Shown here: positions 4,835 through 31,594 of the stretch, one piece after another
Position numbering within the stretch: position 1 is the first letter of the stretch
Layout: the number at the start of each line of letters is the position of its first letter
Assembly: GCA_044225365.1 (NCBI GenBank)
Contig: JBGAIQ010000025.1
Location: forward strand, 1 to 64,000
Length of the DNA stretch: 64,000 nt
Direction of reading: 5' to 3'
Source of the DNA: Planctomycetota bacterium
Lineage (GTDB): Bacteria; Planctomycetota; B15-G4; JADJEK01
Position numbers and translations under genes: made by a program
Notes under the pieces: generated by a model
What the model saw: the letters and a program-made list of their open reading frames with translations, nothing else
The model's database searches: none
What the model was told of the DNA's origin: nothing

Positions 4835-5914
4835 ATGGCGGCGGCTCGGCATCACTTCAAGGTCGGCTTGTTCGTCGTACTGCTCACGATCGGATGCGCT
4901 GCATTCCTGATTTGGATCGGTTCGACCGGTGTGGGTACGAAGGACACCGTCCCCGTCGCCGTCTTCTTCAATGAGTCGGTCCAGGGGCTCTCCGAGGGGT
5001 CGGAGGTGAAGTACCGCGGCTTCAAGATCGGGGAGGTCACCACGATCGACGTCGCGTCGGACAGGAAGCACCTCGAGGTGAAGTGTCTGCTGCGGCGCGA
5101 TTTCGCGGAGAAGATCGGCGTCCTCGCGGGCAAGCCCGACCCGAAGAACCCGGGAATCGCGATGGCCGATGCCGTCGTCGCGAGTCTCGTGTCCTCAGGA
5201 CTGACCGGCCTCAAGTTCGTCGACATCGATCTCCCCGCAAGGATGCCGGAGAGCGCCCTCGGGGTGCCCGATGGCGTGACGGTCCCGGACGGCGTCAGCA
5301 TCGTCCTGCCTTCGACGCCATCGACATTGAAGAGCGTGGAGATCGCGGTCAACGATGCCTTGGACGCCGTAAAGATGCACGGCCCCAACGTCGGCGGCAT
5401 CATCGACGGTCTCTATCAATTCCTCGACTCCTTGAACAAGACCGGCGTCACACAGCAAGCGACCGACACGATCAAGCACCTCGACGAACGCATCGGCCAA
5501 CTCGACACCAAAGGTCTCTCGGATTCGGCGAACGGCCTGTTCACCGAGGTCGGAAAGGCCGTCGCCGGCGCCAACACGACGATCAGCGACCTCGCCGCCG
5601 AGAATGGCGACATCCGTCGCACGGTCCGTCAGATCGAGAGTTCCGCGCGGACGCTGTCGGACGAGGTCAAGTCCGCGGATCTGCCCAACACGACGATCGC
5701 CGTGCGCGACAGCGCGGATCGAGTCGGCAAGGCCGCCGATGCCGTCGCGGGCGCCGCGACCCAGCTCACGAGCATCCTCGGCGAATTGGATCTCACGCTC
5801 CGCTCGGTGCGCGCCACCGTCGACGAACTACGCGGCCTCGTGATCGTCGTCGAACAGGATCCGAGCGCGCTGCTGTTCGGCCGCGACTACCGAACGGGGC
5901 CGCCCAAGAAGTAG
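4835..5914 (+). CDS. MlaD/MCE family lipid-transport protein
   Basis: N-terminal TM (KVGLFVVLL); MCE motif FNESVQGLSEGSEVKYRGFKIGEV...GLTGLKFVDI; helical tail ending DPSALLFGR. Confidence 0.9.
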   Translation: MAAARHHFKVGLFVVLLTIGCAAFLIWIGSTGVGTKDTVPVAVFFNESVQGLSEGSEVKYRGFKIGEVTTIDVASDRKHLEVKCLLRRDFAEKIGVLAGKPDPKNPGIAMADAVVASLVSSGLTGLKFVDIDLPARMPESALGVPDGVTVPDGVSIVLPSTPSTLKSVEIAVNDALDAVKMHGPNVGGIIDGLYQFLDSLNKTGVTQQATDTIKHLDERIGQLDTKGLSDSANGLFTEVGKAVAGANTTISDLAAENGDIRRTVRQIESSARTLSDEVKSADLPNTTIAVRDSADRVGKAADAVAGAATQLTSILGELDLTLRSVRATVDELRGLVIVVEQDPSALLFGRDYRTGPPKK

Positions 5915-7458
5915 GTTCGACGCGCGGGATGCACCTCGTCGAACCAGACGACGGCGTCATAGGAATCCGTGGGAACGACCTGGAACTTCACGGGGCCGAT
6001 CCACGTGAGTTGCGGCGCGACGAGCCATGACAAGACGCCGGACGGCGGCGGCATTCGCAGGGGTGGCTCGATCCCGAGCACGAACGAATCGATCCCCGCG
6101 GCCGCGAGCTGCGCCTCGAACGAGGGAGATCGGCGACTCTGCTCGTCGCGAAGGGTCGTGAGCTCGCGGTCGGGATCCACGAAGCGCCCGGCCGTGCCGG
6201 CGATGACGACGTAGCGATCCATGAATCGCCGGGCGAGGAAGTAGCCCTCCCCGGCCGAGCTTCCCGAGTCCTCTAGGCCGCGCGCGCGATCGAGATGGGC
6301 GGTCGCCGCGAAGTCGAAGGTCTTGCCATAGCGCTGGGCGAGGTATGCGACGTTGTCGGCGAGGTGCTCCTCACGCGACTCACGGCCCGCGAGATAGGTC
6401 GCGAGTTCGGCGGTCGTGTAGTCTCGATCCGTGATCTGCACGTGGGGCATCGGAGGCAGGGGACGCCTCCCCGCCGAATAGACGCGTTCGAGATATTCGA
6501 GCGAAGTGTCGCCGCCGTTGGTGCGGCCGTACATCACGCCATGCGTATTTCGGGATTCGAGGTCCTGCCACATCTGCTGGGCGACCACGATCGTGCGCTG
6601 CGCCCAATCGAAGTCGTCCTCGCCCGTCGTGCCGATCCACTCGGCGCGATGATCCTCCATGAAGGCGAGCACCGCTTCGATCTCGGCGCCGATCTCGGCA
6701 TGTTCCGCGTCGCCGAGTTGGTCGTAGCCGAGCGAGCAAACCGCATCGAGATGATCGGGATCGATGTGATCGGCCCCCACCTTCTCGCGGAGGGTCTGCT
6801 CGACGAAGTCGACGACCGCGGCTGCCTTCACCGCGAGCGCATCGAGCCTCGCGAGCCGCTCGCCCGCACCGACACGCTCGAAATACGGCTTCGCGAGAGC
6901 GAGGGGAACGGTCAGCGTATCGCCTCGGACGGAGAGGTCCTTCCCACCCCAATGCACCAGGGGCCGACCCGCGAGCGCCGCTTCCTGGTTGAACTCCTTG
7001 ACCCACGTGACGAGCGCCCGCGCCTCCTCGAACTCGCCCATGCGGTGAGTGAATCCCTCGCGCATCACGTCGTCGAGGACGAGTCCGCTGTCGCCCCGCA
7101 CATCGGTCACGTAGCGGTCGACGACGCGCGCCTCGAGGATCCCCGTCTCGAGAGTGATCGCGCGAACGTCGTGCGTCCGCACGAGGTGTTCGACGAGTGC
7201 GTTTCTAAATTCAGCGAACTCGCGGAAACCGTGATCCGGCTCTCCGAAACCGATCACCAGCGCATCGCGGACGATCGAGTCGATCTTCTCGAACGCGGCT
7301 TCCTGGTCCTCGAGTCGCGCGGCGTGCGAGCGGATCCACGTTGCCACCTCTGCATTCACCGACGGGTCGGAAGAGCCGCCGGCGCAAGCGCTCCAAAAGA
7401 GCAGCGAGACACCGACAAGAAACCTCGCGAATCGCGAGTGCGAAGCGTTCCGTCCCAT
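5887..7458 (-). CDS. Erythromycin-esterase-family hydrolase, likely lipoprotein
   Basis: VIGFGEPDHGFREF, AITLETG, REEHLADNV and YDAVVWFDEVHP motifs; LFWSAC lipobox-like. Alternative GTG start at 7482. Confidence 0.8.
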   Translation of the reverse strand: MGRNASHSRFARFLVGVSLLFWSACAGGSSDPSVNAEVATWIRSHAARLEDQEAAFEKIDSIVRDALVIGFGEPDHGFREFAEFRNALVEHLVRTHDVRAITLETGILEARVVDRYVTDVRGDSGLVLDDVMREGFTHRMGEFEEARALVTWVKEFNQEAALAGRPLVHWGGKDLSVRGDTLTVPLALAKPYFERVGAGERLARLDALAVKAAAVVDFVEQTLREKVGADHIDPDHLDAVCSLGYDQLGDAEHAEIGAEIEAVLAFMEDHRAEWIGTTGEDDFDWAQRTIVVAQQMWQDLESRNTHGVMYGRTNGGDTSLEYLERVYSAGRRPLPPMPHVQITDRDYTTAELATYLAGRESREEHLADNVAYLAQRYGKTFDFAATAHLDRARGLEDSGSSAGEGYFLARRFMDRYVVIAGTAGRFVDPDRELTTLRDEQSRRSPSFEAQLAAAGIDSFVLGIEPPLRMPPPSGVLSWLVAPQLTWIGPVKFQVVPTDSYDAVVWFDEVHPARRTYFLGGPVR

Positions 7459-7478
7459 CGGGGGCTCTTTCGGGGTCT

Positions 7479-9110
7479 TCACTGCGCGGCGAGGACGGCT
7501 TTGTCGCCGTCGTAGCGCACTCCGCTCGCCCGGAAGAGCTTCTCGACGAAGACCGACTTGCGCGCGGATTCGGCGTAGTTCGCGAAGATCGATGGTTGCG
7601 TCTTGAAGGCCTTCTTCATGCCCTCTGTCGCTTCCTTCGTCTTGCCGTCGAGCGCGTCGAGCAAGGCGATCCCGAGGAGGGCTCCCGCTCGCGTCTCGGT
7701 CTTCAGCGAGTTCTCGAAGTGGAAACGCGCGACGTCGGCCGTCTCTCCCGGGCGCCCCTCTTCGAGTGCGAGGAGGAGGTTCGAGAATCCGATGCGTTCC
7801 TCGCTGTCGGCGACGGACGGTTGTCCCGTCAGCTTCGAGATCGCGGGCAGCCGCTTCAGATCGTCCTTCGTGATCAGGTTGTTCGCGGCACCGAGCGTCT
7901 CGATGACGACGCGCGCGATCATCGCCTGGCCCTCGACCGAGGGATGCACGTTGTCGAGGATCCAATTGCGGCCGACGATCCCCTGGGGCGAGGCCTCCGC
8001 GAAGCGATTCTCCACGTCTGCAAGCAGCGCCGGCGTCTTGTCCGCCACTTCGCGGACGATCGCATTCAGCTCCGTGGTCGCGCGATTCACTCGCCCGTCG
8101 TAGTCGCGGGCGAGCCGATACTGCTCCTTCGCTTCGGGGAAGCGCTCGAGTCCGTCGAGCGCCTTTCCCCGCGCGTAGTAGATGCCGGCAGGAGTGGCAT
8201 CGATCTTCGCGGCCTGCTCCGCGAGATCGAGCGCGTGCTGGAAGTCGCGGGCCTTCGACGCCGCGATCGACTCCGCGATCAACGCCGTCTCCTTCTCGCG
8301 ATCCTCTCGCGAGAGGTCCGCGCGATAGACGTCCGCCATGGGCGGGAAGTCGCGCATGTTCGACACGCTGGTGCACAGCACGAGTCCGATGTCGCGGCGC
8401 TCGCAGACGTCGACGAACTCGTTCAATCGATCGCGGAAGGCCGACAGCACGAGGCCGTATTCCTTGCCGTCGATCGGGCGATGATCGGGCGCCTTGTCCT
8501 TGATGCTCTCGTTGACCTGCACGACCGGCTCGACGTGGAAGGATCGCAGCACGAGTCGTCGCAACGCCATCTTCTCGACGATTCCCGTCAACTCCCCGAG
8601 GACGGGATGCTCGCTCGACTTCATGAGCGCGCCGACGTTCTTGGGATGGAACTCGTTGTGCGCCGAGTAGAGGACGATCAGGTCGGGCTTCAGATCGACG
8701 ACCTCATGCAGCACTTCGACTTCGCCCGCCGAGTACTGCCCGCCGACTCCTGCCCCGAGCACTTCGAACTTCTGCTCGGGCTTCAGGAGCGAGAGCAAGT
8801 GTTGGATCACGAACGGAAACGCCATTTCCTGGATCGGATGACCCTCGACCGTCGAGCCGCCAATGCAGACGATGCGGATCACGTCGTCCGGCTTCTTCTC
8901 GGCGTAGGGCGGATACCACTTCTTCGGATGCGACGGATCGCGCTGCCAGTAGCGCTCCCCGTTCTTGCCCGTCGTGACGGCGAACAAGCGGCCGCTCGAC
9001 ACGTCGTTCGCGCCCACGATCGCACGCGCCACGAATTCGGCGAGCGAGACCGTCACGAGGGGGAAGCAGATGGCGAGCGCCGCTCGCTGCAGAACGGTTC
9101 GAAACTTCAT
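7479..9110 (-). CDS. Membrane-anchored SGNH/GDSL hydrolase-like protein with TPR repeats
   Basis: IVCIGGSTVEG (block I), YSAHNEF (block III), LDNVHPSVEG (DxxH); TPR-like helices; N-terminal TM. Confidence 0.85.
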   Translation of the reverse strand: MKFRTVLQRAALAICFPLVTVSLAEFVARAIVGANDVSSGRLFAVTTGKNGERYWQRDPSHPKKWYPPYAEKKPDDVIRIVCIGGSTVEGHPIQEMAFPFVIQHLLSLLKPEQKFEVLGAGVGGQYSAGEVEVLHEVVDLKPDLIVLYSAHNEFHPKNVGALMKSSEHPVLGELTGIVEKMALRRLVLRSFHVEPVVQVNESIKDKAPDHRPIDGKEYGLVLSAFRDRLNEFVDVCERRDIGLVLCTSVSNMRDFPPMADVYRADLSREDREKETALIAESIAASKARDFQHALDLAEQAAKIDATPAGIYYARGKALDGLERFPEAKEQYRLARDYDGRVNRATTELNAIVREVADKTPALLADVENRFAEASPQGIVGRNWILDNVHPSVEGQAMIARVVIETLGAANNLITKDDLKRLPAISKLTGQPSVADSEERIGFSNLLLALEEGRPGETADVARFHFENSLKTETRAGALLGIALLDALDGKTKEATEGMKKAFKTQPSIFANYAESARKSVFVEKLFRASGVRYDGDKAVLAAQ

Positions 9111-9212
9111 TCGGATTGCCCAAGACGACGCGCTTGAACACCGGCAGCGCGCCGATCCGTATCGAATCTCGCGCGACAGAATACTCGAAAGAGCGAAAAG
9201 TCGAGCGCGTCG

Positions 9213-10196
9213 TCAGAAGCGCTTCGGCAGGGCGAGCCCGCGCGAGTGGACGACCTTGGCCAGCGTCAGATACCAGAACGCGGGCACGAAGAAGAACAAC
9301 GCGACACCGCCCCATCCGATACGGCTCGCGATGACGATCGGCACGATGAGCCGCGAAGCCATCTCGATCGGCATCAGGTCCTGCGCCATCTTCGGCCAGT
9401 CGTAGCGACGATGCGACAGGAGTCGGAACGAGAAGACGAGCGCCGAGCCCCCGAAGAACGCGAGGGCGATCCACTGTGAACGCGACGTGTCCGGGTCGCG
9501 AGAGAGCGCGAACGCCGCGAGCCCGACGGTGGTCGACTTGAGCAAGAGCCCGAGCGCGACGAACGGCCTGCCGATCACCATCGATTCGCCGTCCGTCGCG
9601 ACGAACCGCTGCGCCAATGTGATCGCCCCCGCGGCCTTGTCGTTCGGCACGTCCTTGAGGCCGCCTTCGATCGCGTTGAAGAACAGGTGCTCGACGAACA
9701 CGATCGCGACGACGATCCACGCGACGAGCGTCACCTCCTCGAACGGAGCCACGGCGAGCGCTCCGACGAGACAAAGGCTCGCGGCGGAGACTCCGAACAA
9801 CAGATCCGATCCGAGCACGTGCTTCGACACGTGGTCGTACACGATCGCGAGGAGCGACGCGACGAGCACGAACGCGAGCGCACGGAACGGAAGCGCCATG
9901 GAGGCGACGAGGAGCATCGAGACCAGCAGGACGCCGATCACGATGCGCGCGGCCCGCGGGGACAGATCGCCTCGCACGAGTACGCGATCGTCCAGCGCCG
10001 GAGTTCGGCGATCGACCTCGAGATCGCACAGATCGTTGTGGGCGAACGTCCACGCCACGAAGAGCACGTTCATGACGAGCAACGCCGCGAGGATGCTTGC
10101 AGGCAGAGCGCGCCCGCACTGAGCAAACGCCGCGAGGAGCGAGATGTACCCGAAGGCGAGATACTCGACGCGGCAGAGTTTGAGGATGGGGATCAT
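9213..10196 (-). CDS. UbiA-family membrane prenyltransferase
   Basis: NDLCDLEVD and KDVPNDKAAGAITL acidic motifs; RVLVRGDLS; many TM helices. Confidence 0.9.
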   Translation of the reverse strand: MIPILKLCRVEYLAFGYISLLAAFAQCGRALPASILAALLVMNVLFVAWTFAHNDLCDLEVDRRTPALDDRVLVRGDLSPRAARIVIGVLLVSMLLVASMALPFRALAFVLVASLLAIVYDHVSKHVLGSDLLFGVSAASLCLVGALAVAPFEEVTLVAWIVVAIVFVEHLFFNAIEGGLKDVPNDKAAGAITLAQRFVATDGESMVIGRPFVALGLLLKSTTVGLAAFALSRDPDTSRSQWIALAFFGGSALVFSFRLLSHRRYDWPKMAQDLMPIEMASRLIVPIVIASRIGWGGVALFFFVPAFWYLTLAKVVHSRGLALPKRF

Positions 10197-10234
10197 GCCG
10201 TCTCGGGTCAGCGCTCCGCACCGACCCCTGCGCT

Positions 10235-11341
10235 TCACATCCTGCGCTTCACGCTCGAGAAGTCGCAGAACTGGCGAAGCAGTTCCTTGTATTCGTCTCG
10301 GAGGTGCAGCCGGTCGACGAGGGCCTGCGACTTCGCGTTGTACTCGTTCGCGAGATCGAGGGCGAACTCGAGGCCGTGGTACTTCTTGACCAGGTCGTAG
10401 ACCTTTCGCTTCTGATCCTCGTCGCGCGTTCGCGAGTTCAAGATGGTCTCGATGAGTCTTGCGTCGTCCTTCGAGGCGGTGCGCAGGACGTGATTGATGA
10501 GCAGCGTGCGACGGCCCGTCGTGATGTCCTCGCCCGCGATCTTCCCCCACGCCTCGGAGTCCGGCTCCATGTCGAGGTTGTCGCCCTTCACGTGGTAACC
10601 GATGAGGACGTACTCCCCGAGCTTCTCGAGGATCGGGATGTCCTCCGCGGGCGCTCCCGCGATGATCGCGGCGTAGCGCAATGGGCCGCGGAACGAAAGG
10701 AACGCGCAGCGGGCGATCGTCTCCTGCAGGTACTGCGGGATCGTGACCGTGTTCTTGTTCGCCGCCGTCCAGTACAGCTCCTCGATCTGCCCGTAGCCCA
10801 TTTGGATGTGCTCGAACGCGACGGCGTCGAGCAACTCGAGTGCGACGGAAGTGGGAAGACCGAGCAGATTGTCGTTGAAGATCCGATGCGACAGCGAGAA
10901 CGCCGTACACGACGAGATGTTCGCGATCGCGTAGCCGTGCGCGATGTGGCCGCAAGGACCGCCCCGTCGCAGTTCGGAGTGATCGATGTAGTCGTCCATC
11001 ATGATGGAGCTGTCCTCCATCACCTCGATCGCTCCCATCAATGCGCCGAAGCGATTCGAGTCCTCGCCGTAGGCGTCGAGCACGAGCGCGACGAGGACGG
11101 GTCGCAGCATCTTGCCGCCGCGATCGAGGTACTCGTGAGTCGGACGCAGCACGGTGTCGGCAATCGTCTCGAGGTCGGGCTCGAACAACGGTTCGAGTCC
11201 AGTCACCTGTTCGAGGTCGCGCTTCGTCATCACGCGTGGGAAGTAGTCGTCGATCTCCCGCTTCACTCGCTCGTACTTGGCGAGGTAGTAGTCGCGGAAC
11301 TCGGTGGGCATGCCGTCGACGATCTTGTCGATCTTGCTCAT
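10235..11341 (-). CDS. Trans-polyprenyl diphosphate synthase family protein with atypical second Asp-rich motif
   Basis: GGKMLRP, DDYIDHSELRRG (FARM), GQ, GKIAGEDITTGRRTL; the SARM position reads YHVKGDNLD. Confidence 0.9.
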   Translation of the reverse strand: MSKIDKIVDGMPTEFRDYYLAKYERVKREIDDYFPRVMTKRDLEQVTGLEPLFEPDLETIADTVLRPTHEYLDRGGKMLRPVLVALVLDAYGEDSNRFGALMGAIEVMEDSSIMMDDYIDHSELRRGGPCGHIAHGYAIANISSCTAFSLSHRIFNDNLLGLPTSVALELLDAVAFEHIQMGYGQIEELYWTAANKNTVTIPQYLQETIARCAFLSFRGPLRYAAIIAGAPAEDIPILEKLGEYVLIGYHVKGDNLDMEPDSEAWGKIAGEDITTGRRTLLINHVLRTASKDDARLIETILNSRTRDEDQKRKVYDLVKKYHGLEFALDLANEYNAKSQALVDRLHLRDEYKELLRQFCDFSSVKRRM

Positions 11342-11345
11342 CGTC

Positions 11346-12422
11346 TCACTCCTTCTCGAACGCCGCGGAGAAGGACTGCGCCGCGTGGGGCAGAAGGTGC
11401 GCCCGCGTGAGCTCGTCGCGAAACAGGCGGACGTGCTGGAGTTCCTCGTCGCGCATCGTTCGAAGGGTCTCCACGCGACAACCCTCTCGCGCGACGCGTG
11501 CGAGCGCTCGCGCAACGTGCTTCACTCGCGGGAACCGGGTGCCGGACAACGGCGCGAGATCGACGGCGAGGCGGTCCGCCGCGACCACTGAACCCGGAAA
11601 CCACATCGGCAGCGACACGTCGTGCTCCGGCGCATCGTCCGGTTCGCGGAAGTCCGTGAGCGACTTCCTTTCGAGCCGCAACTTCACCGCCACGGAGAGG
11701 TGGGAGAACGCTCGCTTCACGGCCGCGAGGTCTTCTTCGCTCCGTCCCACGAGAACCGTCGCCATCGCAGCGGGCGAGATCACGAGTTCGCAGAGGAGCA
11801 TGGGAGCGATCGCGAGCCATTGACCGCGGGTGACCCCGGAGAATCCCCGGTGAGCGAATCGAACGAAGCACGCTCGCGCGATCCCGGTGGCCGTGAACGA
11901 TCGATGCCCCCATCGATGCACCCCGATCCGCACTTCGGGCGCGACGTCGAGTTCGTTCGTCACGATGAGCCAGCGCGGATAGTTGTTGAGCCACTGCGCC
12001 CCGTAGCGCAATTGAACGAGCCGCTCCGCCGTCGCCTGATCCGGCGTCTTGTCCGCGAACGCGCCGTGATAGTTGAAGTGATCGTTGATGCGAGTCGCGA
12101 AGTGGGCGTACTCGAGGATGACGGCGGCGTGACGTGCGCCCTTGCTCTCACAGCCGTACTCGCGCAATACCGCGTGGAGCAGCGCCCCCGCCCCGCTCGG
12201 CCGCTCGAGGAAGGGCTTCGCGAGATCGAGGAACCCGGCGTGGATCGGTTCGAAGTCCCAATCGAACTCGGTCTCGCGGATCACTTTCGCGAGCAAGTGC
12301 TGGGGGTCTTCGAGCAAGGCGCGCTCGCGCGCGAGGCGACCCTCGACGAAGGCCCGATCGGCCGGTGTCACATAGTGATCATCGATCTGCGCGAGCAGGG
12401 CTGCGATGGGCGATGCGTTCAT
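11346..12422 (-). CDS. Degenerate polyprenyl-synthase-like protein (possible non-catalytic subunit)
   Basis: Similar length to the adjacent synthase; ILEYAHFATRINDHFNYH aligns by eye with IEVMEDSSIMMDDYIDH; no DDxxD. The ORF is solid but the function is tentative. Confidence 0.6.
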   Translation of the reverse strand: MNASPIAALLAQIDDHYVTPADRAFVEGRLARERALLEDPQHLLAKVIRETEFDWDFEPIHAGFLDLAKPFLERPSGAGALLHAVLREYGCESKGARHAAVILEYAHFATRINDHFNYHGAFADKTPDQATAERLVQLRYGAQWLNNYPRWLIVTNELDVAPEVRIGVHRWGHRSFTATGIARACFVRFAHRGFSGVTRGQWLAIAPMLLCELVISPAAMATVLVGRSEEDLAAVKRAFSHLSVAVKLRLERKSLTDFREPDDAPEHDVSLPMWFPGSVVAADRLAVDLAPLSGTRFPRVKHVARALARVAREGCRVETLRTMRDEELQHVRLFRDELTRAHLLPHAAQSFSAAFEKE

Positions 12423-12460
12423 GGTCTCTTCAGGGATTGCGCCGGGCGATGGCATCGACG

Positions 12461-13522: not shown

Positions 13523-14409
13523 GGGTCCTTCTCTCCGGAAAGCACCGCGCGAGCGCGATGCTGAGCGATGACGTTCAATAGTGTCTTGCCGGGCGCCCGC
13601 GGATCCGCCGCGACGACTTCACGCAGGAGCCGATCTCGCATCGCGAGGTCGCCCTTGCGCGCCGCATAGTGCAGCGCGAGCCCGACCTTCGCGGTGAAGT
13701 CCGTTCCCCCGGAGATCTCGAGCAATCGCTCGAAGTGACGCCGCGCCGGTTCGAGGTCGCCGCCTTGTTCGGGCGAGACCATCGAGGCGAAGCCGCCGAG
13801 ATAGAGATGCGCGATGCCGTTGCCCGCGGTCTCGTCGAGCACGAGGACTCGTTCGAGGATCGAGCGCACGCGCGGCAGATCGCCGACGGCCTCGAGGTCC
13901 TCCCCGGCCGAGCGGATGTACGCGGCCCAGGCCGACCCGATCGCGAGCAGGGCAGGGACGTCGTCCTTCGTCGCCCGGGCGAGCTTGCGATCGAGTTCGT
14001 CGAAGGTGCACTCTCGAAGCCCCTGCAACTCGGGATTGCTGCGCTTCACGCCCTCTTCGGCGTAACGATAGGCTTTCTTGGCGAGCACGCGGAACCGCTC
14101 GGGCTGCGCGTAGGAGAGGCTCGCGAGGGCGGAGTTGAGCTGAGCGCCCGCGAGCCAGGGCTGCGGCTCCTCGGGATTTCCGGCAAGGATGCCATCGAGC
14201 AGGATCACGAAGGCAGGCACGCCCGCGATGACCGTGTCGATGTCCTCGCTGTCGAACACCGCACGACCCATGCGTTCCATGAACGCCGAGTCGAGCTTCG
14301 GCTGGAACAGCGAACAACCGGTCGTGAGAGCCACGAGGCTCACGACCAGGGCGCGAGACGGGCTCCAGCATCCTCGCTCGACGCCGGGGTTCGCGCAGCG
14401 GTTCGTCAC
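13507..14409 (-). CDS. TRAP transporter TatT component (TPAT) lipoprotein
   Basis: LTTGC lipobox; DLPRVRSILERVLVLDE...AHLYLG...GGDLEPARRHFERLLEIS...NVIAQHRA; adjacent to DctP. Start is uncertain. Confidence 0.8.
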   Translation of the reverse strand: MTNRCANPGVERGCWSPSRALVVSLVALTTGCSLFQPKLDSAFMERMGRAVFDSEDIDTVIAGVPAFVILLDGILAGNPEEPQPWLAGAQLNSALASLSYAQPERFRVLAKKAYRYAEEGVKRSNPELQGLRECTFDELDRKLARATKDDVPALLAIGSAWAAYIRSAGEDLEAVGDLPRVRSILERVLVLDETAGNGIAHLYLGGFASMVSPEQGGDLEPARRHFERLLEISGGTDFTAKVGLALHYAARKGDLAMRDRLLREVVAADPRAPGKTLLNVIAQHRARAVLSGEKDPWSPY

Positions 14410-14419
14410 GTGTCGGGGG

Positions 14420-15196
14420 TCAGACGGCCTGTTCGCGCAGGTTCCGGCGCACGCGCGGCCGGATCGCGACAGCGCTCGGCGGCGCGACCTCGCGCGCATG
14501 CTTCATGAACTCGATGACGGCGTCACGCGTGATTCCGGTCGTGCGATCGCCCTTCGAACACACCGCGCCCCGGACGCCGACGATGTCCGCGCCGACGTTC
14601 GACAGCACCGCGATGTGCTCGCGCTTCACCGAGCCGGCGAGCGCGACGAGCAGTCCGAACGAATGCGCGAGCTCGGTGAACTCCCTCAGGTCCTTCTCGC
14701 TGAGCGAGTCGAAGAGATTCTTGCCGTCCTTCATGAACGTGTCGAGCATCGCCACGTCCGACCCGGACTCGTGAGCCGCGCGGACGATGTCGAGATGATT
14801 CACGCCGCCGAAGCGCTTCCAATCGGCATATCCCGAAGCGACCGTGATGACGTCATTGCTGACCATCCGCACCGACTTCACGACCGACGTCATCATCTCA
14901 CGCGCTTGCTCGAGATTGGTGGCGCCATGCAGACCCGCCTTGACGTAGTCGACGCCGCATTGCGCGCAGCCGTAGGCGGCGAGGCCCGCCGTTCCCGGCT
15001 TGAAGGGCAGGTCGCCGAGAGTCGCGGAGAGCATCACGCCCTTGCCGCCGAGCGTCTCGACGATCGACTTCAGCATCCAGGGGGGCTGCGCTCCGAGCGA
15101 CCCTTCCTTGACGTTCTTGAGGTCAAGGATGTCGCAACCACCCTCGATGACGATCTTCGCTTCTTCGAGCGAGATCGGACTGATCAGTACCTTCAT
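14420..15196 (-). CDS. mfnB: (5-formylfuran-3-yl)methyl phosphate synthase (4-HFC-P synthase), archaeal-type
   Basis: LISP..EEA...GGCDILDLKNVKEGSLGA.PPW, SATLGDLPFKPGT, DYVKAGL, GYAD, AMLDTFMKDGK, ALAGS and DIVGVRGAVC follow methanogen MfnB closely; Asp25 and Lys27 positions are retained. Confidence 0.93.
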   Translation of the reverse strand: MKVLISPISLEEAKIVIEGGCDILDLKNVKEGSLGAQPPWMLKSIVETLGGKGVMLSATLGDLPFKPGTAGLAAYGCAQCGVDYVKAGLHGATNLEQAREMMTSVVKSVRMVSNDVITVASGYADWKRFGGVNHLDIVRAAHESGSDVAMLDTFMKDGKNLFDSLSEKDLREFTELAHSFGLLVALAGSVKREHIAVLSNVGADIVGVRGAVCSKGDRTTGITRDAVIEFMKHAREVAPPSAVAIRPRVRRNLREQAV

Positions 15197-15542
15197 ACGT
15201 CCTCACGTCACGGGCCGCATTCACTGCCGAACTTGCCGATTACGAGGAGCCGCGCATTCCGGTTCCTCGGCGGTCGCAAGTGTCTTTGGGTCGTCGGCTG
15301 GATCCACGGGGCGCCGCGCGCCCTAGGCGAGAATCGTCGCTCGATCACTCCTCTGCCGAAGCCGGCCCCGCAGAGGATGCCGGACTCCGACCGAACGCGG
15401 CACCGTCGCCACGCCGTACACTCGGTCGAATCGTAACCTTCGAAGCTCGATTGTCACGCATCTCGTCCTGGCATCGCGTGGACTGCGGACTCCAGGTTCC
15501 ATCGTTGAGGTTCGGGGCGAGGAACGGTCAAGTAGCCAGGAC

Positions 15543-17840
15543 ATGCGATCCTCCTTCGTCCGCACCTTTGCCCGCGTGCCCGTGGAATGGCCGAAATCCA
15601 CGTTGCTGGTCTTCCTCGTCCTCGCGGCCGCGGCGCTCTACCCGCCGCCGTCCTTCCAGATGCATCAGGAGGACGTCAACGATCTCGATTCCGACGACCC
15701 CGAGATCCGGCTGCTCGCCGAGTTCAACAGGAAGTTCGGCGACGAAGAGGTCCTGCTCGTCGCACTGGAGTCGAAGGACGCCTTCGCCGAGGATTCGCTG
15801 CGACATCTCGAACGCGTGAGCGAGGCCGTCGCAAATCTCCCCACCGTCGACCGCGTATATTCCCTGTTCACCGTCGACGACTTCAAAGTCGAAGGCGGGC
15901 AGATGGGGTCGGAACGCTTCCTGCGGGAGCAGCCGAGGACACCCGAGGAACGCGCCGCGAAACGGGATTTGGCGCTCCACAACTCGACCTTTTCCGGCTT
16001 CCTGCTGTCGAAGGATGGAACCGTTGCGACGGTCACCGCGGTCCTCCGCAAGGAGAATGGTGCCGTGCCGCAACGCGCAGAGGTCGCGAAGCGGCTGCGG
16101 GAGATCGCGGCCGATGGCCGCCCGGCGGACATGCACAGCTACGTCACCGGGCGCGGCGCGCTGTTCCTCGAAGCGGACGAAGCCGGTCGCAAGGACCTGA
16201 AGCGCTACCTGTGGCTGACGCCCCTCCTCATCGTCGGCCTCCTCTACTGGGTGTTCCGCAGCTTCCGCAGCATCGCGATCGCCCTCTTCGTGTGCGGCCT
16301 CGCGGTCACGGTCACCGTCGCCCTCTACATCCGTGCGGGAAATCCCGCAGGGATGATGTTCGCCGTGCTTCCGATCCAGGTCGGCGTCATCTGTCTGTCC
16401 GACATCATCCACCTGCTCGCTCGCGGGCAGGAGTGCGTGCTCGAACTCGGACGGGAAGGGCAAGGGGGCGACAAGAAGGCGGCCTTGCGGGCGACGATGG
16501 AGCACATGATCCCGGCCTGCTTCTACACGGCCCTCACGAGCGCGATCGGGTTCTTCTCGTTCACCTCCGCGGGCCTCGGCTCGCTCGTGACCCTCGGCCT
16601 GTGGGTCGGCATCGGGATCCTGCTCGCCTGGGTCCTCGCGATGACGCTGGTCCCCGCGCTCCTCGCCCTGCTGCCCTCCCGCCGCGAGTCCGAGCAGGTC
16701 CATTTCGCGCCCTGGATCTCGGGCTACCTCGTCGAGATGGCGGTGAACCTGGTCGCCAGTTCGAAGCGGAAGCGAACCGGGGTGACGCTCGCCTGGATCG
16801 TGGCCCTCGTGATCGCCGGATTCGGCGTCGCGCGACTCGACGTCGATTCGGACTTCACGAGCTACCTGCCGCCGGACTCCGAGACGTCGGTGGCGTCGCG
16901 GATCCTGCGCGACAAGCTCGCGGGAACAGCGACGCTCGAGGTCCTGCTCGAAGGCGAGAAGCTGTGCTTCGAGGAGCCCTACGCGATCGCGGCCCTCGCG
17001 AGCGTCGATGCCTATCTGCACACGCGTCCCGAGGTCGACAAGACGTTCTCGGTCCTCGACTTCATGAAGCGCATGAGCGAGGCGCGCGGCGGCGGCAAGG
17101 GCACGATCCCGAGCGATCCGGCGGGATTGACCGAAGCGTTCTTCGTGCTCGAAGGCAGCTCCGAGGTCGATCGCTTCATCACGAAGGATCGCGATGCGGC
17201 GAGGATCTCGATCCGGTTGAACGCACACTCGACGAAGGGACCGGTCGAGGTGGTGCGCGGGCTCGAGGAGTTCCGCACGTCGCTCGATCCGCGACTGAAG
17301 CTGTCGACGACCGGCGTGTCGAAGATCTTCGCTGCGACGTCGCAGGCGCTCGTCTACGGCGAGACGAAGTCGCTGTTCCAATCGCTGTTCTGGGTGTCGC
17401 TCGCGCTGCTCGTAGCGGTGCGCTCGTGGCGGATGGGTTTGATCGCGCTGCTCCCGAACGTCGCGCCGATCCTCATCACGCTCGGCACGATGGGGTGGCT
17501 GCACGTGCCGCTCGACATCGCGACGATCCTCGTCGGATCGATGGCGCTCGGAATCGCGGTCGACGACACGATCCACCTGATCACACGGCACACCGAGGAG
17601 CAGGGAATCGAGCCCCGCGGCGCGCTGGTGCGGACGCTGCGCTCTTCGGGTCACCCGTCGATCTTCACGACGTTCGTGTTCACGGGGGGATTCCTGGTAT
17701 TCCTGCTGTCGAGCTTCCCGCCGATGCGCGCGTTCGGCGCGCTCGCCGCCTACGCGATGATCGTGGCGATGTTCGCGGACCTCACGCTGCTCCCACTTCT
17801 CTTGCGCGGCCCGCGCGAACTTGAACCGCGGGGCGGGTGA
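15543..17840 (+). CDS. MMPL/RND family lipid exporter
   Basis: Two repeats of periplasmic domain plus TM bundle; TALTSAIGFFSF, ALGIAVDDTIH, ADLTLLP; divergent from mfnB. Confidence 0.92.
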   Translation: MRSSFVRTFARVPVEWPKSTLLVFLVLAAAALYPPPSFQMHQEDVNDLDSDDPEIRLLAEFNRKFGDEEVLLVALESKDAFAEDSLRHLERVSEAVANLPTVDRVYSLFTVDDFKVEGGQMGSERFLREQPRTPEERAAKRDLALHNSTFSGFLLSKDGTVATVTAVLRKENGAVPQRAEVAKRLREIAADGRPADMHSYVTGRGALFLEADEAGRKDLKRYLWLTPLLIVGLLYWVFRSFRSIAIALFVCGLAVTVTVALYIRAGNPAGMMFAVLPIQVGVICLSDIIHLLARGQECVLELGREGQGGDKKAALRATMEHMIPACFYTALTSAIGFFSFTSAGLGSLVTLGLWVGIGILLAWVLAMTLVPALLALLPSRRESEQVHFAPWISGYLVEMAVNLVASSKRKRTGVTLAWIVALVIAGFGVARLDVDSDFTSYLPPDSETSVASRILRDKLAGTATLEVLLEGEKLCFEEPYAIAALASVDAYLHTRPEVDKTFSVLDFMKRMSEARGGGKGTIPSDPAGLTEAFFVLEGSSEVDRFITKDRDAARISIRLNAHSTKGPVEVVRGLEEFRTSLDPRLKLSTTGVSKIFAATSQALVYGETKSLFQSLFWVSLALLVAVRSWRMGLIALLPNVAPILITLGTMGWLHVPLDIATILVGSMALGIAVDDTIHLITRHTEEQGIEPRGALVRTLRSSGHPSIFTTFVFTGGFLVFLLSSFPPMRAFGALAAYAMIVAMFADLTLLPLLLRGPRELEPRGG

Positions 17841-17985
17841 CCGTCCGCGCGATCGCCGTCCGATTTCCACGCGCGGAGATTTGCCACGCCGTCTGCGGCA
17901 AACTCAGATTCGTTCCTCGCGAGTGGATGCGGCAACGCAGATGCGAGCGTCGCGGCCGTCCGTGAGGGCGAGGTCGATCGATTCA

Positions 17986-18177
17986 CACGGAGGACCACGG
18001 AGGTCAGAGGAGGACTACGGGGGTCGGAGAAGAACAGAGATTCAGGAAAGGGGCCGTCCCGCACACGCGATGCGATCGAAGCTCCTCGGCAACCGCGTTC
18101 GCAATGACCGCCGAGGTGGCCCCCTTTCCCGTTTCCTAACCTCCGTGGGCCTCCTCTGACCTCCGTGGGCCTCCGTG
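17986..18177. repeat. Imperfect ~44-bp inverted repeat pair (17986-18029 / 18134-18177) built of CACGGAGG units; REP/MITE-like
   Basis: CACGGAGGACCACGGAGGTCAGAGGAGG is nearly the reverse complement of CCTCCTCTGACCTCCGTGGGCCTCCGTG. Confidence 0.8.
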
Positions 18178-18361
18178 GAAAACTCTTCATCGTTCACCGA
18201 AAGCGCGCGCGGGAATACACGAGCGAGCGTCGCGGCAACCCGTGAGGACGCTGTCGACCGCGGCGCGATGAGTTCGCATCCGACGGCGTGCAAACCTCTG
18301 CGGCGGGTTCTTCATCGTCGTCCGTTCACACGATGCGTTCGCACCCAAGACTCTCCGGGGT

Positions 18362-19162
18362 ATGCTCCCGAGCGTGATCCAGTTGAACGTTCCCACGAAG
18401 CCCGCACTCGTGAAGATCGGCGGGTCGATCGCCACGGTCGCGGATGGCGATCATGTGAATCGCAATGTCCTGATGCGGCTCGCCGGCGAATTCCGCGAAG
18501 CCGGAATCCCGCTCGTACTCGTCCACGGCACGGGGCATGTCGGCAAGCCATGGGCCCATCGCGGCGGGTTCGCGACGAGCGGCTACCTTCCTCCGTGGGA
18601 GAAGAAGACCTCCCTCACCATTCGCTCCGAGCTGCGGAGCCTCAACCGAAAGATCGTCGAGTGCCTCTCGCACGGCGGCCTCCGCGCGATCGGAATGGAA
18701 TTCGAATCGTGGCAGGAACTCGGCAGACGCCATCCCTCCGCTGCGCGCCACCAGATCGAGGAACACCTCCATCACGAAGAGACCCCTGTCTTCTTCGGTG
18801 ACATGCTGGCGCAACCCGAAGGCGGCTATCGCGTCTACTCGAGCGACCGCATGCTCATCGATCTCGCGCGCCGCGTTCCGTTCGGGACCGGTCTCCTCCT
18901 CACCGACGTCGAGGGCGTCCTCGGCGGGACACCGGAACGACTTCTTCCCGAAGTCTCCGAAGGAACGCTCGCCCACGTCGCGCGAAGGACGAGCGACGAC
19001 GCCGATGTGAGTGCGGGCATGCGGGGCAAGCTCGCAAACGCGTTCGTGCTCGCACGGCACGTGGAACGGTGCTTCATCGCGAGCGGAATGAAGCCCGGTG
19101 TCGCCCGCGATCTCCTCCTTCGACGCGACGCGCCCGCGACGCGAATCGTGGTCGATCCGTGA
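18362..19162 (+). CDS. Isopentenyl-phosphate-kinase-like amino-acid-kinase-family protein
   Basis: VKIGGSIAT, LVHGTGHVGK, PVFFGD, SSD, TDVEGV and DVSAGMRGKL (cf. IPK DVTGGM.GK). Confidence 0.8.
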   Translation: MLPSVIQLNVPTKPALVKIGGSIATVADGDHVNRNVLMRLAGEFREAGIPLVLVHGTGHVGKPWAHRGGFATSGYLPPWEKKTSLTIRSELRSLNRKIVECLSHGGLRAIGMEFESWQELGRRHPSAARHQIEEHLHHEETPVFFGDMLAQPEGGYRVYSSDRMLIDLARRVPFGTGLLLTDVEGVLGGTPERLLPEVSEGTLAHVARRTSDDADVSAGMRGKLANAFVLARHVERCFIASGMKPGVARDLLLRRDAPATRIVVDP

Positions 19163-20130
19163 ACGCTGTGAACGATTTCCGATCGAGCGCGATCGGCCTC
19201 GGATGCTGGGCGATCGGCGGACCGTTCTTCCGCGGGACCGAGCCGCTCGGCTGGGGCGAAGTGGACGACGACGAATCCGTTCGGGCGATCCATCGCGCAC
19301 TCGAACTCGGCGTCACGTTCTTCGACACCTCGGACTTCTACGGCTGCGGTCGTTCCGAGCGCGTGCTGGCGAGCGCGCTTCGCGATCGCCACGACGTCGT
19401 GATCACGACGAAGTTCGGCTATCGCTGCGACGAAGCCACTCGCCAGGTGCTCGGTCACCGCGATCTTCCGAGAGAACTGTCCACGGCTCTCGACGCCAGT
19501 CTCGCGCGACTGCAGCGCGATCACGTCGACCTCTACCTCCTCCATCTTCGCGACTTTCCGCTCGAGCGCGTCGACGACCTCGTCGCCGCCCTCGAGACCG
19601 AAGTCGCGAAGGGACGCATTCGCGGGTACGGCTGGAGCACCGACGATCCGCTGCGCGCACGGGCGATCGCTCGTGGAGAGCACTGCGTCGCGATCGAGCA
19701 AGCGCTCAACGTCTTCCAGGGCGATCGCGATCTCTTGCGTTTCACGCAGGAGCGAGGCCTCCTGTCGATCGCCCGCAGTCCCCTCGCGATGGGATTGCTC
19801 GCGGGCCGCACGACTCGCGCCGGCGCGGACGACATAAGGTCGCGGATCGCGGACTCGAATCCCTCGTGGCGCGCGATTCACGATCGTCTCGAAACACTTC
19901 GAACGGTGCTCACTCGCGACGGGCGCACACTGGCGCAGGGCGCCCTGCTCGCGCTGCTCTCGCGCGGCGAGAACGTGATCCCGATACCGGGATTCCGCTC
20001 CGTCGCGCAGGTCGAGGAGAATGCGGTAGTTCTTCGAATGCCGGCAATGGATCCAAAGGACGTCGCACGGATCGACGAACTCGTCGCCTCGCTCACGCTG
20101 CCGCCCGACCCCCTCACGTTGCGAGGATGA
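19159..20130 (+). CDS. Aldo/keto reductase
   Basis: GLGCWAIGG, FDTSDFYG, TKFG, DLYLLH (D/Y/K/H tetrad), PIPG; GTGA overlap with the kinase stop. Confidence 0.93.
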   Translation: MNAVNDFRSSAIGLGCWAIGGPFFRGTEPLGWGEVDDDESVRAIHRALELGVTFFDTSDFYGCGRSERVLASALRDRHDVVITTKFGYRCDEATRQVLGHRDLPRELSTALDASLARLQRDHVDLYLLHLRDFPLERVDDLVAALETEVAKGRIRGYGWSTDDPLRARAIARGEHCVAIEQALNVFQGDRDLLRFTQERGLLSIARSPLAMGLLAGRTTRAGADDIRSRIADSNPSWRAIHDRLETLRTVLTRDGRTLAQGALLALLSRGENVIPIPGFRSVAQVEENAVVLRMPAMDPKDVARIDELVASLTLPPDPLTLRG

Positions 20131-31519: not shown

Positions 31520-31539
31520 GACTTCGGCCGTCGTAGCAG

Positions 31540-31580: not shown

Positions 31581-31594
31581 CACGTCCGATCATC

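Follow-up and report, generated by a model that had tools for sequence, protein, structure and literature searches.

The question that this locus raises is what a furan-forming enzyme does among the genes of isoprenoid synthesis. In a stretch of 64,000 nucleotides from a Planctomycetota bacterium (contig JBGAIQ010000025.1 of assembly GCA_044225365.1; the whole stretch is called the window here) the gene mfnB, which encodes a homologue of (5-formylfuran-3-yl)methyl phosphate (4-HFC-P) synthase, opens an operon that also encodes a polyprenyl-synthase-family enzyme (PS-A), a second protein of the same fold without its Asp-rich motifs (degPS) and a UbiA-family prenyltransferase. A kinase related to isopentenyl phosphate kinase (IPK) lies nearby. 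It was found that this association recurs around mfnB in bacteria of many phyla, and that marker enzymes of the methanofuran cofactor pathway are not matched in the genome. We propose that the island may build and export a lipid that combines a furan unit with isoprenoid chains, and we assign to this reading a probability of about 0.5. The general coupling of furan and isoprenoid chemistry is supported by the conservation of the linkage together with the absence of the cofactor pathway; the specific chemistry set out below rests on inference.

Eight genes in one minus-strand run and three divergent genes on the plus strand make up the island; they were called by codon-position GC analysis together with lists of open reading frames (ORFs) and a scan of start codons; long spurious ORFs are plentiful in the window because its G+C content is about 65%. 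The features are the following:

5887-7482, minus strand: erythromycin-esterase-family protein, final gene of the run (PF05139, 74.4 bits; frame from codon-position GC)
7479-9110, minus strand: GDSL-lipase/TPR protein of 543 amino acids (weak matches: Lipase_GDSL_2, 29.7 bits at a cut-off of 32.9; TPR_2, 21.4 bits at a cut-off of 27)
9213-10238, minus strand: UbiA-family membrane prenyltransferase (start at GTG 10238 or ATG 10196; PF01040, 70.9 bits)
10235-11341, minus strand: PS-A, polyprenyl-synthase-family enzyme of 368 amino acids (PF00348, 138.2 bits)
11346-12455, minus strand: degPS, polyprenyl-synthase-fold protein of 369 amino acids, both Asp-rich motifs lost (AlphaFold and Foldseek)
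12461-13522, minus strand: DctP-like periplasmic binding protein, the P-type protein of tripartite ATP-independent periplasmic (TRAP) transporters (PF03480, 56.9 bits; NF037995 TRAP_S1, 113.9 bits)
13507-14409 (alternative start 14499), minus strand: TatT-family TPR lipoprotein (PF16811, 164.9 bits)
14420-15196, minus strand: mfnB, 4-HFC-P synthase homologue of 258 amino acids, first gene of the operon (PF04476, 255.7 bits, E 5.5e-76)
15197-15542, no strand: divergent intergenic region between mfnB and the MMPL gene (from ORF coordinates)
15543-17840, plus strand: MMPL/RND-type inner-membrane transporter of 765 amino acids (PF03176, 140.9 bits; sterol-sensing domain, 30.2 bits)
18362-19162, plus strand: IPK-family kinase of the amino-acid-kinase fold, 266 amino acids (PF00696, 80.2 bits)
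19159-20130, plus strand: aldo/keto reductase (PF00248, 158.3 bits)

This layout, a tight minus-strand run with a divergent transporter, kinase and reductase, had been described in an earlier sequence-only reading of the same DNA, and searches of Pfam and NCBIfam together with fold comparisons bore it out. The TatT and DctP genes overlap by 16 nucleotides, gaps of only 5 and 4 nucleotides separate degPS from the DctP gene before it and the PS-A gene after it, and an AAGGAG motif stands immediately 5' of the PS-A start. Possible GTGA start/stop overlaps join PS-A to UbiA, the GDSL gene to the esterase gene and the kinase to the reductase, where GTG 19159 overlaps the kinase stop codon; GTG 14409, one option for the start of TatT, is 10 nucleotides past the mfnB stop. 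The widest gap of the run, about 100 nucleotides, lies between UbiA and the GDSL gene. The last two genes had been counted in the run as an SGNH/TPR protein and an esterase; they do belong to it, even if the SGNH/TPR domains score below their cut-offs, but as core members of the module they were rejected, tblastn having matched them in 0 of the 80 mfnB loci described next.

Whether the neighbourhood of mfnB is meaningful depends on its recurrence. A single-protein search for mfnB relatives returned nothing from genome contigs and one distant archaeal-type locus (L090) from metagenome contigs. A profile of 31 MfnB homologues (alignment A1) recovered at least 222 relatives among 600 pattern matches in genome contigs, and the best 80 were retained together with flanks of up to 10 kb in both directions. 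In a first pass, tblastn with the window proteins and all-against-all clustering of ORFs placed partners of the window beside mfnB in many bacterial loci. A census with hidden Markov models (HMMs; E <= 1e-6, within 10 kb of mfnB) was then made over 20 bacterial loci outside the Streptomycetaceae, 25 loci of Streptomycetaceae and 35 archaeal loci. The kinase, a polyprenyl synthase, UbiA and/or degPS occurred in 14 of the 20 bacterial loci, distributed over Thermodesulfobacteriota, Lentisphaerota, Verrucomicrobiota, Bacteroidota, Pseudomonadota, Actinomycetota, Planctomycetota, Melainabacteria and Elusimicrobiota; the kinase was the most frequent partner, followed by the polyprenyl-synthase-family enzyme and then UbiA. 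The linkage between mfnB and prenyltransferase or kinase genes, which the sequence-only reading had proposed as the first point to be checked by gene-neighbourhood searches, thus recurs across phyla. The contents of the main loci, several of them in metagenome-assembled genomes (MAGs), are as follows:

Victivallales (L005 and L092, on one contig): mfnB, kinase, TatT, DctP, MMPL, glycosyltransferase, MipA, methyltransferase, degPS, PS-A (588 bits, PS-A profile) and UbiA; this contig holds the entire core of the window
Desulfobulbaceae (L004): radical SAM protein, pyruvyl transferase, methyltransferase and UbiA; divergently mfnB, LPG_synthase_TM, TatT, DctP and MMPL
Desulfobulbaceae, second small contig (L091): degPS, PS-A (631 bits, PS-A profile) and kinase
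Akkermansia sp. (L006): degPS, PS-A, UbiA, kinase, LolA-like protein, MacB/FtsX permease and ABC ATPase; divergently mfnB and a fusion of short-chain dehydrogenase/reductase and aldehyde dehydrogenase (SDR-ALDH)
Propionibacterium australiense, P. acidifaciens and Chromobacterium vaccinii (L014-L016): mfnB, kinase, AsnB-like amidotransferase, canonical synthase, HAD protein, UbiA, motif-less synthase-like protein and PS-A-like synthase, followed in both Propionibacterium loci (L015, L016) by an ABC ATPase
Bacteroidota (L010, L011): radical SAM protein, mfnB, a HAD-containing (L010) or unannotated (L011) protein, PS-A-like synthase and kinase
Elusimicrobia (L061): weak UbiA-like protein, canonical synthase, B12-radical SAM protein, PS-A, mfnB and methyltransferase
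Planctomycetes (L017 9998-11539, L022 3661-5187, L026 9983-11526): the pair of mfnB and kinase alone

The Chromobacterium contig ends inside its last gene, and the kinase and synthases there were taken from tblastn and HMM matches. For the Elusimicrobia the Pfam scans were made on L061, and the B12-radical-SAM frame was not picked out in L039. The gene order after mfnB is shared by L014 (5541-12582), L015 (10001-19103) and L016 (10001-19123). The planctomycete pairs sit among glycoside-hydrolase, esterase and BNR genes; against the PS-A profile an ordinary synthase (about 82 bits) was all that two of these three genomes yielded, and in the third nothing matched at E <= 1e-20; here furfuryl diphosphate may feed another acceptor.

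Three of the six unlinked bacterial loci (L008, L009, L018) are contigs that end beside mfnB, and L007 has unrelated neighbours. In L012 (3648-8141) an AMP-binding (adenylating) enzyme overlaps mfnB on its upstream side and is accompanied by a PP-binding carrier protein and an SDR-ALDH fusion; L020 (8130-10738) shares only the AMP-binding gene with it and has an extracytoplasmic-function (ECF) sigma factor after mfnB. These neighbours suggest another bacterial use of mfnB, with a furan carboxylate loaded on a carrier. No kinase of the mfnB-linked type was found in the genomes of these two loci.

Outside this bacterial group the linkage fades. In the Streptomycetaceae (L032, L033, L035, L040, L041, L045, L046, L048, L049, L052, L056, L058, L060, L062, L063, L065-L068, L072-L074, L077, L080, L081) one locus of 25 has a synthase, about 6 kb away, and none has the kinase or UbiA. 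The 35 archaeal loci contain no synthase; UbiA matches of 39-43 bits lie about 7-10 kb away in six of them, and seven have weak kinase-fold matches (28-49 bits, compared with 261 for a linked kinase), mostly 3-5 kb away. These weak kinase-fold genes belong to Bathyarchaeota (L029, L031, L047, L051, L059 and L075, at about 13-16 kb, 3-5 kb downstream of mfnB) and to an Asgard archaeon (L028, 10779-11477, beside mfnB on the opposite strand), and they are possibly MfnE.

PS-A itself is a rare protein. At E <= 1e-80, 151 genomes from the order to which the Desulfobulbaceae MAG belongs gave one match, and so did 301 genomes from the phylum that includes the Victivallales MAG; each time the matching genome was the one on which the comparison was centred. 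Since PS-A is so rare and yet stands repeatedly beside mfnB, its position there is not due to chance.

Is the MfnB protein itself an intact enzyme? Its PF04476 match (cut-off 22.4) covers profile positions 1-226 of 228, and over residues 2-230 it aligns with MJ1099 (PDB 4RC1) at E 2e-73 and 250 bits, with about 56% identity over 229 residues. The catalytic residues of MJ1099, which we take to be D25, K27, K85 and D151 (K27 as the Schiff-base lysine, the others as acid/base), align with D25, K27, K86 and D152 of the window protein, and these four are invariant in the 31 homologues; by its sequence the enzyme looks catalytically intact. The closest relatives are 85% and 75% identical to it. Lengths of the longest contig coincide between the lists of relatives, with 13 values common to mfnB and PS-A and 4 of 7 common to mfnB and degPS, which hints that these genes occupy the same contigs there as well.

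The phylogeny was taken from a quick IQ-TREE run on 75 rows with support from the Shimodaira-Hasegawa approximate likelihood ratio test (SH-aLRT); L004, L009, L025, L033, L067, L068, L072 and L077 were left out, as the best tblastn segment in each fell short of 180 residues or contained a stop. A branch with 99% support separates the window sequence and every linked locus included (13) from the 55 rows on its other side, all of which are archaeal or from Streptomycetaceae. The Chromobacterium vaccinii and Propionibacterium sequences are sisters (98% support), which together with the gene order shared between Pseudomonadota and Actinomycetota points to the transfer of a whole operon between phyla. 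The Streptomyces and Kitasatospora sequences in the tree (20 of 25) form a single tight clade among the archaeal ones.

The separate and well-supported bacterial clade, and scores below the NCBIfam equivalog cut-offs, would also agree with a homologue of some other activity that makes no furan, the island then producing an ordinary isoprenoid lipid with a different triose-derived head group. This seems quite improbable to us in view of the 250-bit similarity to MJ1099 and of the retention of all four residues that we take to be catalytic.

The cofactor role was then examined in the genome itself (6.53 Mb in 103 contigs, 94.29% complete), which has a single mfnB. Profiles for Mch (PF02289), MfnF (TIGR03123) and MfnE (NF040622) gave no match in it, whereas the methanogen controls were matched, and neither the window nor these whole-genome searches revealed any other mfn or one-carbon (C1)-transfer gene, as the sequence-only reading had noted for the window. 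In five further linked genomes (Propionibacterium australiense, Chromobacterium vaccinii, and the Flavobacteriaceae, Akkermansia and Victivallales MAGs) Mch and MfnF were matched in none. An incomplete genome cannot prove the absence of these genes, yet six genomes agree, and it is supported that MfnB is not part of a methanofuran or methylofuran cofactor pathway here.

Two further explanations are touched by these results. The first is that mfnB serves methanofuran or methylofuran synthesis after all, or adjoins an unrelated isoprenoid operon by accident. The textbook role of MfnB speaks for it, as does the mfnB of methylotrophs, which is described as part of an "archaeal-like" cluster in the sections of PMC8141765 that were available. 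Given the unmatched marker enzymes in its own genome and in the linked ones, the adjacency in 14 of 20 bacterial loci over many phyla and the two singular occurrences of PS-A, we regard it as extremely improbable.

In the second the product would not be a structural lipid; it would be a prenylated furan, anchored in the membrane, which serves as a redox or one-carbon cofactor comparable to quinones or methanofuran. Methanofuran functions through its formyl or aminomethyl furan, and UbiA relatives, to judge from their family names, make quinones and haem O. Furthermore, cofactor synthesis is the only role of MfnB that appears in the available part of PMC8141765. No partner oxidoreductase or C1 enzyme was recognised in the cluster, though, and Mch, MfnE and MfnF are unmatched in the genome; the distribution is patchy and accessory, and three different export sets across phyla (MMPL/TatT/DctP, LolA-like/MacB ABC, ABC ATPase) fit a product that moves outward. 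A cofactor of this kind is accordingly improbable.

The genome also tells how isopentenyl diphosphate (IPP) is supplied. IspH is present (281.3 bits) and HMG-CoA reductase is not matched; IPP therefore comes from the methylerythritol phosphate (MEP) pathway, and an IPK is not needed for its supply. PcrB (the synthase of geranylgeranylglyceryl phosphate, GGGP) is not matched in the genome either. Among 60 related genomes MfnB was found in one, of another family, with 32% identity and inside a frame of 592 amino acids, and degPS in none; the cluster is therefore an accessory island, which may have been acquired horizontally.

The kinase is the most constant partner of mfnB, present in 11 of the 20 bacterial loci outside the Streptomycetaceae and directly after mfnB in 7, planctomycete loci among them. 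Its best NCBIfam model is IPPK_Arch (NF040647), at 90.7 bits below the cut-off of 120, and its best PDB relatives are isopentenyl phosphate kinases (7lnt, E 2.1e-13). Related mfnB-linked kinases score 92.6-177.5 bits on the IPK model, and three of the five that were scanned pass the cut-off. The MfnE model does not match the window kinase and gives at most 21 bits, for one relative; with IPK-model scores so much higher, identification of the kinase as an MfnE orthologue was rejected, and by sequence the mfnB-linked kinases are members of the IPK branch, as opposed to the MfnE branch, of this fold. They differ from ordinary IPKs in the motif HGTGxxGKP, whose residues H55, G56, T57, G58, G61, K62 and P63 are invariant in 11 mfnB-linked kinases. 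The window kinase reads HGTGHVGK where the IPK 7lnt reads HGAGSFGH, so that the second histidine of the IPK motif HG(G/A)GSFGH, which presumably contacts the substrate phosphate, is not kept and is replaced by the invariant pair K62-P63.

Since the kinase is found next to mfnB even where no synthase or UbiA is near, it is tied to the product of MfnB and not to the synthases. An IPK converts a monophosphate ester into a diphosphate. The simplest reading of the sequences, which we infer, is that the kinase turns 4-HFC-P or a derivative of it into the diphosphate. On the furan of methanofuran, this diphosphate-forming step is performed by MfnE according to the part of PMC8141765 that was available. 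The mfnB-linked kinases would then define an IPK subfamily that probably acts on a non-isoprenoid phosphate.

The next question concerns the enzyme that could use such a diphosphate. The best PDB relative of PS-A is the geranylgeranyl diphosphate (GGPP) synthase 1wy0 (79.8 bits), with 3aqb_B, 9kp1_B and 3kra_A as further relatives. Its relatives at E <= 0.001 number 95; about 80 clusters reach 51% identity or more, nearly all of them of 368 amino acids, and at their source they are annotated as GGPP synthases. The first Asp-rich motif (FARM), DDYID, is intact and followed by RRG: DDYIDHSELRRG. Across alignment A3, whose 35 sequences extend to 30% identity, D117, D120, K77, R80, R125 and R126 are invariant and D116 nearly so. 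The second motif is of a different kind. Judged against 1wy0 and against canonical paralogues of the same loci, PS-A has an invariant signature in A3 which consists of G253-D254-x-L256 in place of the usual DDxxD, R211-C212 in place of K-T, and H250 in place of Q. The second Asp-rich motif (SARM) is thus a pseudo-SARM, GDNLD in the window and GDxLD in the family, and the true DDxxD and the lysine of K-T are missing. At the signature positions the PS-A-like enzymes from Bacteroidota and Propionibacterium show DDxLN and R-S instead.

For degPS no sequence match was found in Pfam, NCBIfam or the PDB, a profile search of the PDB included, and the call of a degenerate polyprenyl synthase, made earlier from the sequence, was confirmed through the predicted fold. 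Its AlphaFold model has a predicted local distance difference test score (pLDDT) of 86.5 and a predicted template modelling score (pTM) of 0.88, and among the Foldseek PDB matches listed all have the fold of trans-isoprenyl diphosphate synthases (IPPS), the prenyltransferase Ord1 included; the best is 9imq (E 2.1e-4, template modelling (TM) scores 0.53/0.59). Both Asp-rich motifs are missing, NDHFN standing at the FARM position. The family is small: 5.8 billion clusters yielded 7 relatives, and 1.84 billion proteins yielded 26 representatives; protein-atlas leads to archaeal hypothetical proteins are weak (score 0.92, 158 shared features).

The gene for degPS lies directly upstream of that for PS-A in four lineages (the window, L006, L091 and L092), and a complex of the two proteins was predicted with a score of 0.94, compared with 0.00 for the best control, a value which may reflect the likeness to solved IPPS dimers and heteromers. 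The mark used for complexes was reached by 58 of 80 solved complexes and by 2 of 110 mismatched pairs, counts that apply only roughly here, since PS-A and degPS were modelled with our own alignments; contacts agreed between runs by at least 97%, with a partner pLDDT of at least 89. On this modelling we propose degPS as a non-catalytic partner of PS-A in a heterodimer. PS-A and degPS represent two uncharacterised protein families with a clear active-site signature.

The UbiA protein (PF01040 cut-off 34.2) has kept both Asp-rich motifs, NDxxDxxxD and a DxxxD with its subsequent G and T; N54, D55, D58, D62, K181, D182, D186, G190 and T193 are invariant in four orthologues. Its AlphaFold model (pLDDT 84.2) is nearest in fold to the archaeal digeranylgeranylglyceryl phosphate (DGGGP) synthase 6m31/7bpu (E 2.3e-6, TM 0.63/0.72), with the Archaeoglobus fulgidus homologue (4tq4/4tq3) and the Aeropyrum pernix homologue narrowly behind and the membrane phosphoribosyltransferase 8j8j after them; such a ranking of modelled folds is insufficient to settle the acceptor. 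By sequence there was no PDB match, and the DGGGP synthase models PRK12882 and PRK12883 did not match the window protein at E <= 0.001. Its best model in the NCBIfam search was PRK12884, "prenyltransferase", with 51.1 bits at a cut-off of 269, and on PRK12882 its orthologues score 48.7 and 40.1 bits at a cut-off of 296. Action of UbiA on GGGP was rejected, the genome being without a PcrB match.

These results bear on the strongest alternative, in which the furan monophosphate or alcohol is the nucleophile and is prenylated on carbon or oxygen by UbiA (or PS-A), the kinase is a true IPK or dimethylallyl phosphate kinase and PS-A/degPS is a chain-length-specific synthase, in the manner of 4-hydroxybenzoate in quinone synthesis or GGGP in archaeal lipids. 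It is favoured by the IPK-family kinases, some of them above the IPK cut-off, by the residues of the IPP site and the small residues before the FARM in PS-A, and by the similarity of the UbiA model to an ether-forming enzyme. Additionally, the HAD phosphatases of the Propionibacterium, Chromobacterium and Bacteroidota loci fit a removal of the furan phosphate after prenylation, and an aldo/keto reductase or SDR-ALDH gene is near mfnB in some loci. On the other hand a genome with the MEP pathway needs no IPK, the histidine of the IPK motif gives way to an invariant Lys-Pro in the kinase subfamily, and the kinase follows mfnB directly even where neither synthase nor UbiA is near; the pseudo-SARM, the R-C pair and His250 of PS-A are unlike ordinary synthases, and the aldo/keto reductase is not conserved. 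We therefore consider this scheme unlikely, while giving it by far more weight than the three explanations above.

It is close to one of the two schemes offered by the sequence-only reading, namely reduction of the formyl group followed by an ether-forming UbiA. Its UbiA part agrees with the nearest fold, that of the DGGGP synthase, but the reductase part is weakened as, besides the window, an aldo/keto reductase occurs in only one of the 14 linked loci (L036, between kinase and synthase). The other scheme, in which the kinase would form furylmethyl diphosphate as the starter of the atypical synthase, fits the comparative data best.

The genes that could export a product were examined in the same way. 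Among solved structures TatT comes nearest to a palmitate-binding TatT from Enhygromyxa salina (8G52, E 3.8e-9) and next to Tp0956; in the window protein the sequence LVALTTGC, read from the translation, resembles a lipobox. The DctP-like protein has an RR-containing N-terminus, and its PDB matches are TRAP substrate-binding proteins. No DctQ or DctM family was seen among the genes called between 372 and 23796, and the set is therefore not a TRAP transporter; MMPL takes the place of these subunits in the window and in the loci of Desulfobulbaceae (L004) and Victivallales (L005). Both of these loci keep the order TatT-DctP-MMPL, and the three genes without DctQ/M span 12461-17840 in the window, 6216-10489 in L004 and about 11577-16159 in L005.

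BstABC of Methylococcus capsulatus combines a pump of the MmpL family with a periplasmic binder and a lipoprotein of the TatT superfamily; its genes sit in a sterol biosynthesis operon, and sterol transport to the outer membrane is proposed for it; TatT proteins that bind long-chain fatty acids are reported in the same source, and about a quarter of the TatTs are paired with partners other than TRAP P/Q/M (available sections of PMC11713862). The same make-up of pump, binder and TatT lipoprotein beside lipid-synthesis genes was found here. The set resembles BstABC in architecture, which need not mean orthology; it looks like a hybrid of a TatT-associated TRAP system and BstABC, and by this analogy could be an export machine in its own right, which would add a third example of TatT-family lipoproteins that work with an MmpL pump. 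The same core occurs with other exporters, a LolA-like/MacB-type ABC set in L006 and an ABC ATPase in L015 and L016. That exporters of different kinds accompany a single biosynthetic core speaks for a hydrophobic product which is moved out of the cytoplasmic membrane.

The pathway that we propose runs as follows. Going by its sequence, MfnB would condense two molecules of glyceraldehyde-3-phosphate to 4-HFC-P, and the IPK-family kinase would add a second phosphate to give furfuryl diphosphate (4-HFC-PP), thus doing the job of MfnE with a kinase of another branch. IPPS and UbiA folds both ionise allylic-type diphosphates on Asp-bound Mg2+. The putative heterodimer of PS-A as catalytic subunit and degPS as partner could ionise the benzylic-type diphosphate and join isoprene units to it; alternatively it might prenylate the furan. 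UbiA would then transfer the product to a membrane acceptor or add a chain there, and the aldo/keto reductase might trim the formyl group as a local accessory step, while SDR-ALDH, AsnB, methyltransferases, radical SAM proteins and HAD proteins may tailor the formyl group or the chain in other loci. Finally, by analogy with BstABC, the MMPL pump, the DctP-like binder and the TatT lipoprotein would move the lipid to the outer envelope. Furfuryl diphosphate is favoured as the electrophile because the kinase tracks mfnB without a nearby synthase, and because the MfnE/MfnF pathway activates the same C-O bond.

Several observations weigh against this proposal. The 80 loci are the most query-like relatives and not a random sample. 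MfnB falls under both NCBIfam equivalog cut-offs (284.6 against 341 and 284.8 against 304 bits). The kinase and reductase genes are set apart from the mfnB operon by the MMPL gene plus a gap of about 520 nucleotides, and on the Elusimicrobia contigs mfnB and the kinase (178 and 176 bits) are about 14.5 kb apart. Linked kinases with 177.5, 142.2, 124.2 and 119.7 bits, at an IPK cut-off of 120, could simply make IPP. PS-A keeps the IPP-binding basic residues of ordinary synthases (K77, R80, R125 and R126) and has small residues at positions -4/-5 before the FARM, as in medium- and long-chain synthases; judged by its sequence it could be an ordinary chain-length-specific synthase. The predicted complex may pass through its likeness to solved IPPS dimers and heteromers, and it rests on our own alignments. 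The planctomycete pair of mfnB and kinase has no PS-A or UbiA nearby, and the GDSL/TPR and esterase genes have no counterpart by tblastn at any of the mfnB loci compared.

The boldest form of the proposal is that an envelope lipid of a new class is made in six or more phyla, 4-HFC-PP replacing dimethylallyl diphosphate (DMAPP) as the starter of PS-A/degPS, followed by fixation through UbiA and BstABC-like export; we regard it as possible but rather doubtful. If it were true, a non-isoprenoid primer of terpenoid chains would provide a new entry to terpenoid chemistry, and the furan-primed chains would be a new lipid class. MfnB would have its first role outside cofactor synthesis, a second and unrelated one conferred by a coupling conserved over many phyla. 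Full-text searches, which left most subscription journals outside their scope, brought up neither a connection of MfnB with prenyl enzymes nor an account of such a cluster; this agrees with the earlier impression that no cluster of this composition had been described, and no description of such a lipid or meroterpenoid class was met either. It should be emphasized that the core has cultured carriers, Chromobacterium vaccinii MWU205, Propionibacterium acidifaciens DSM 21887 and P. australiense NML98A072.

As regards the surroundings of the island, no Rfam family was found between 4000 and 22000, and promoter and terminator scans of the region gave sites not above chance; a sigma-70-like site on the minus strand at 15457-15430, in the intergenic region between mfnB and MMPL, is one of 2 such sites compared with 0.9 +/- 1.1 expected, thus likewise not above chance. 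The flanks consist of chromosomal housekeeping genes including MutS, RNase R and adenylosuccinate lyase, plus an alpha-2-macroglobulin with a penicillin-binding protein (PBP). A protein with an MlaD domain (lipid transport, MCE type) is encoded at 4640-5914, convergent with and adjoining the last gene of the cluster. The alpha-2-macroglobulin (1983 amino acids) stands beside the transglycosylase/transpeptidase PBP at 21976-29660, an arrangement that we take to be the known A2M-PBP1C pairing. ORFs at 372-1979, 20900-21964 and 35913-37139 (535, 354 and 408 amino acids) are well supported by codon-position GC and have no Pfam match, and two large proteins contain CarboxypepD_reg repeats, four at 31520-33184 and eight at 57045-60524.

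How does the island compare with known systems? With methanofuran and methylofuran biosynthesis (MfnB, MfnC, MfnE and MfnF; Orf22, Orf21 and Orf9 in Methylorubrum) it shares the first enzyme. In the available part of PMC8141765 furfuryl phosphate is converted to the diphosphate so that the C-O bond ionises and is joined to a nucleophile, and the same logic is proposed here. Unlike in that pathway, MfnE, MfnF and Mch are unmatched, the kinase is of the IPK branch, the candidate couplers have IPPS and UbiA folds, and the product is probably a lipid and not a soluble cofactor.

Archaeal ether-lipid synthesis (IPK, GGPP synthase, GGGP synthase and DGGGP synthase) provides the best matches of several proteins, namely IPPK_Arch, IdsA_Meth, PRK12884 and the DGGGP synthase 6m31/7bpu. 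The scores are however far under the family cut-offs, PcrB and HMG-CoA reductase are unmatched in the genome, and the mevalonate pathway is absent.

In the heteromeric trans-prenyl diphosphate synthases (hexaprenyl HexA/HexB, heptaprenyl components I/II, and the large and small subunits of plant geranyl diphosphate synthase) the same adjacent and motif-less partner of the same fold is met, the dimer being a predicted one in our case. In contrast to them PS-A has GDxLD for the true second Asp-rich motif, R-C for K-T and His for Gln, and degPS is of full length (369 amino acids), with no relatives detectable by sequence outside its own small family.

ComQ, XiaM and Ord1 are IPPS-fold prenyltransferases with an intact FARM and a pseudo-SARM, which transfer a prenyl group to an aromatic ring and not to IPP (accessible part of PMC12510300). 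PS-A shares with this type the kept FARM and the degenerate SARM, and Ord1 is among the structural matches of degPS. There is however no close sequence kinship, PS-A keeps the basic residues of the IPP site, and Ord1 was crystallised as homodimers while a heterodimer is predicted for PS-A/degPS. The acceptor in that comparison is indole, and here we propose a furan phosphate.

As for export, the combination of MmpL-type pump, binder and TatT lipoprotein with isoprenoid-lipid genes is shared with BstABC, and the TatT protein matches Tp0956. The binder here is of the DctP/TRAP type, whereas BstB is likened to PhnD in the sections of PMC11713862 at hand; BstC itself is not matched by the window TatT at E <= 0.01, the cargo here is putative, and unlike in the TatT-associated TRAP system Tp0956/Tp0957 no DctQ/M is seen. 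Systems of known kinds, the prenyl-chain/UbiA lipid pathways, the furan arm of methanofuran and Bst-type export, would thus be recombined in this island into a pathway not described before.

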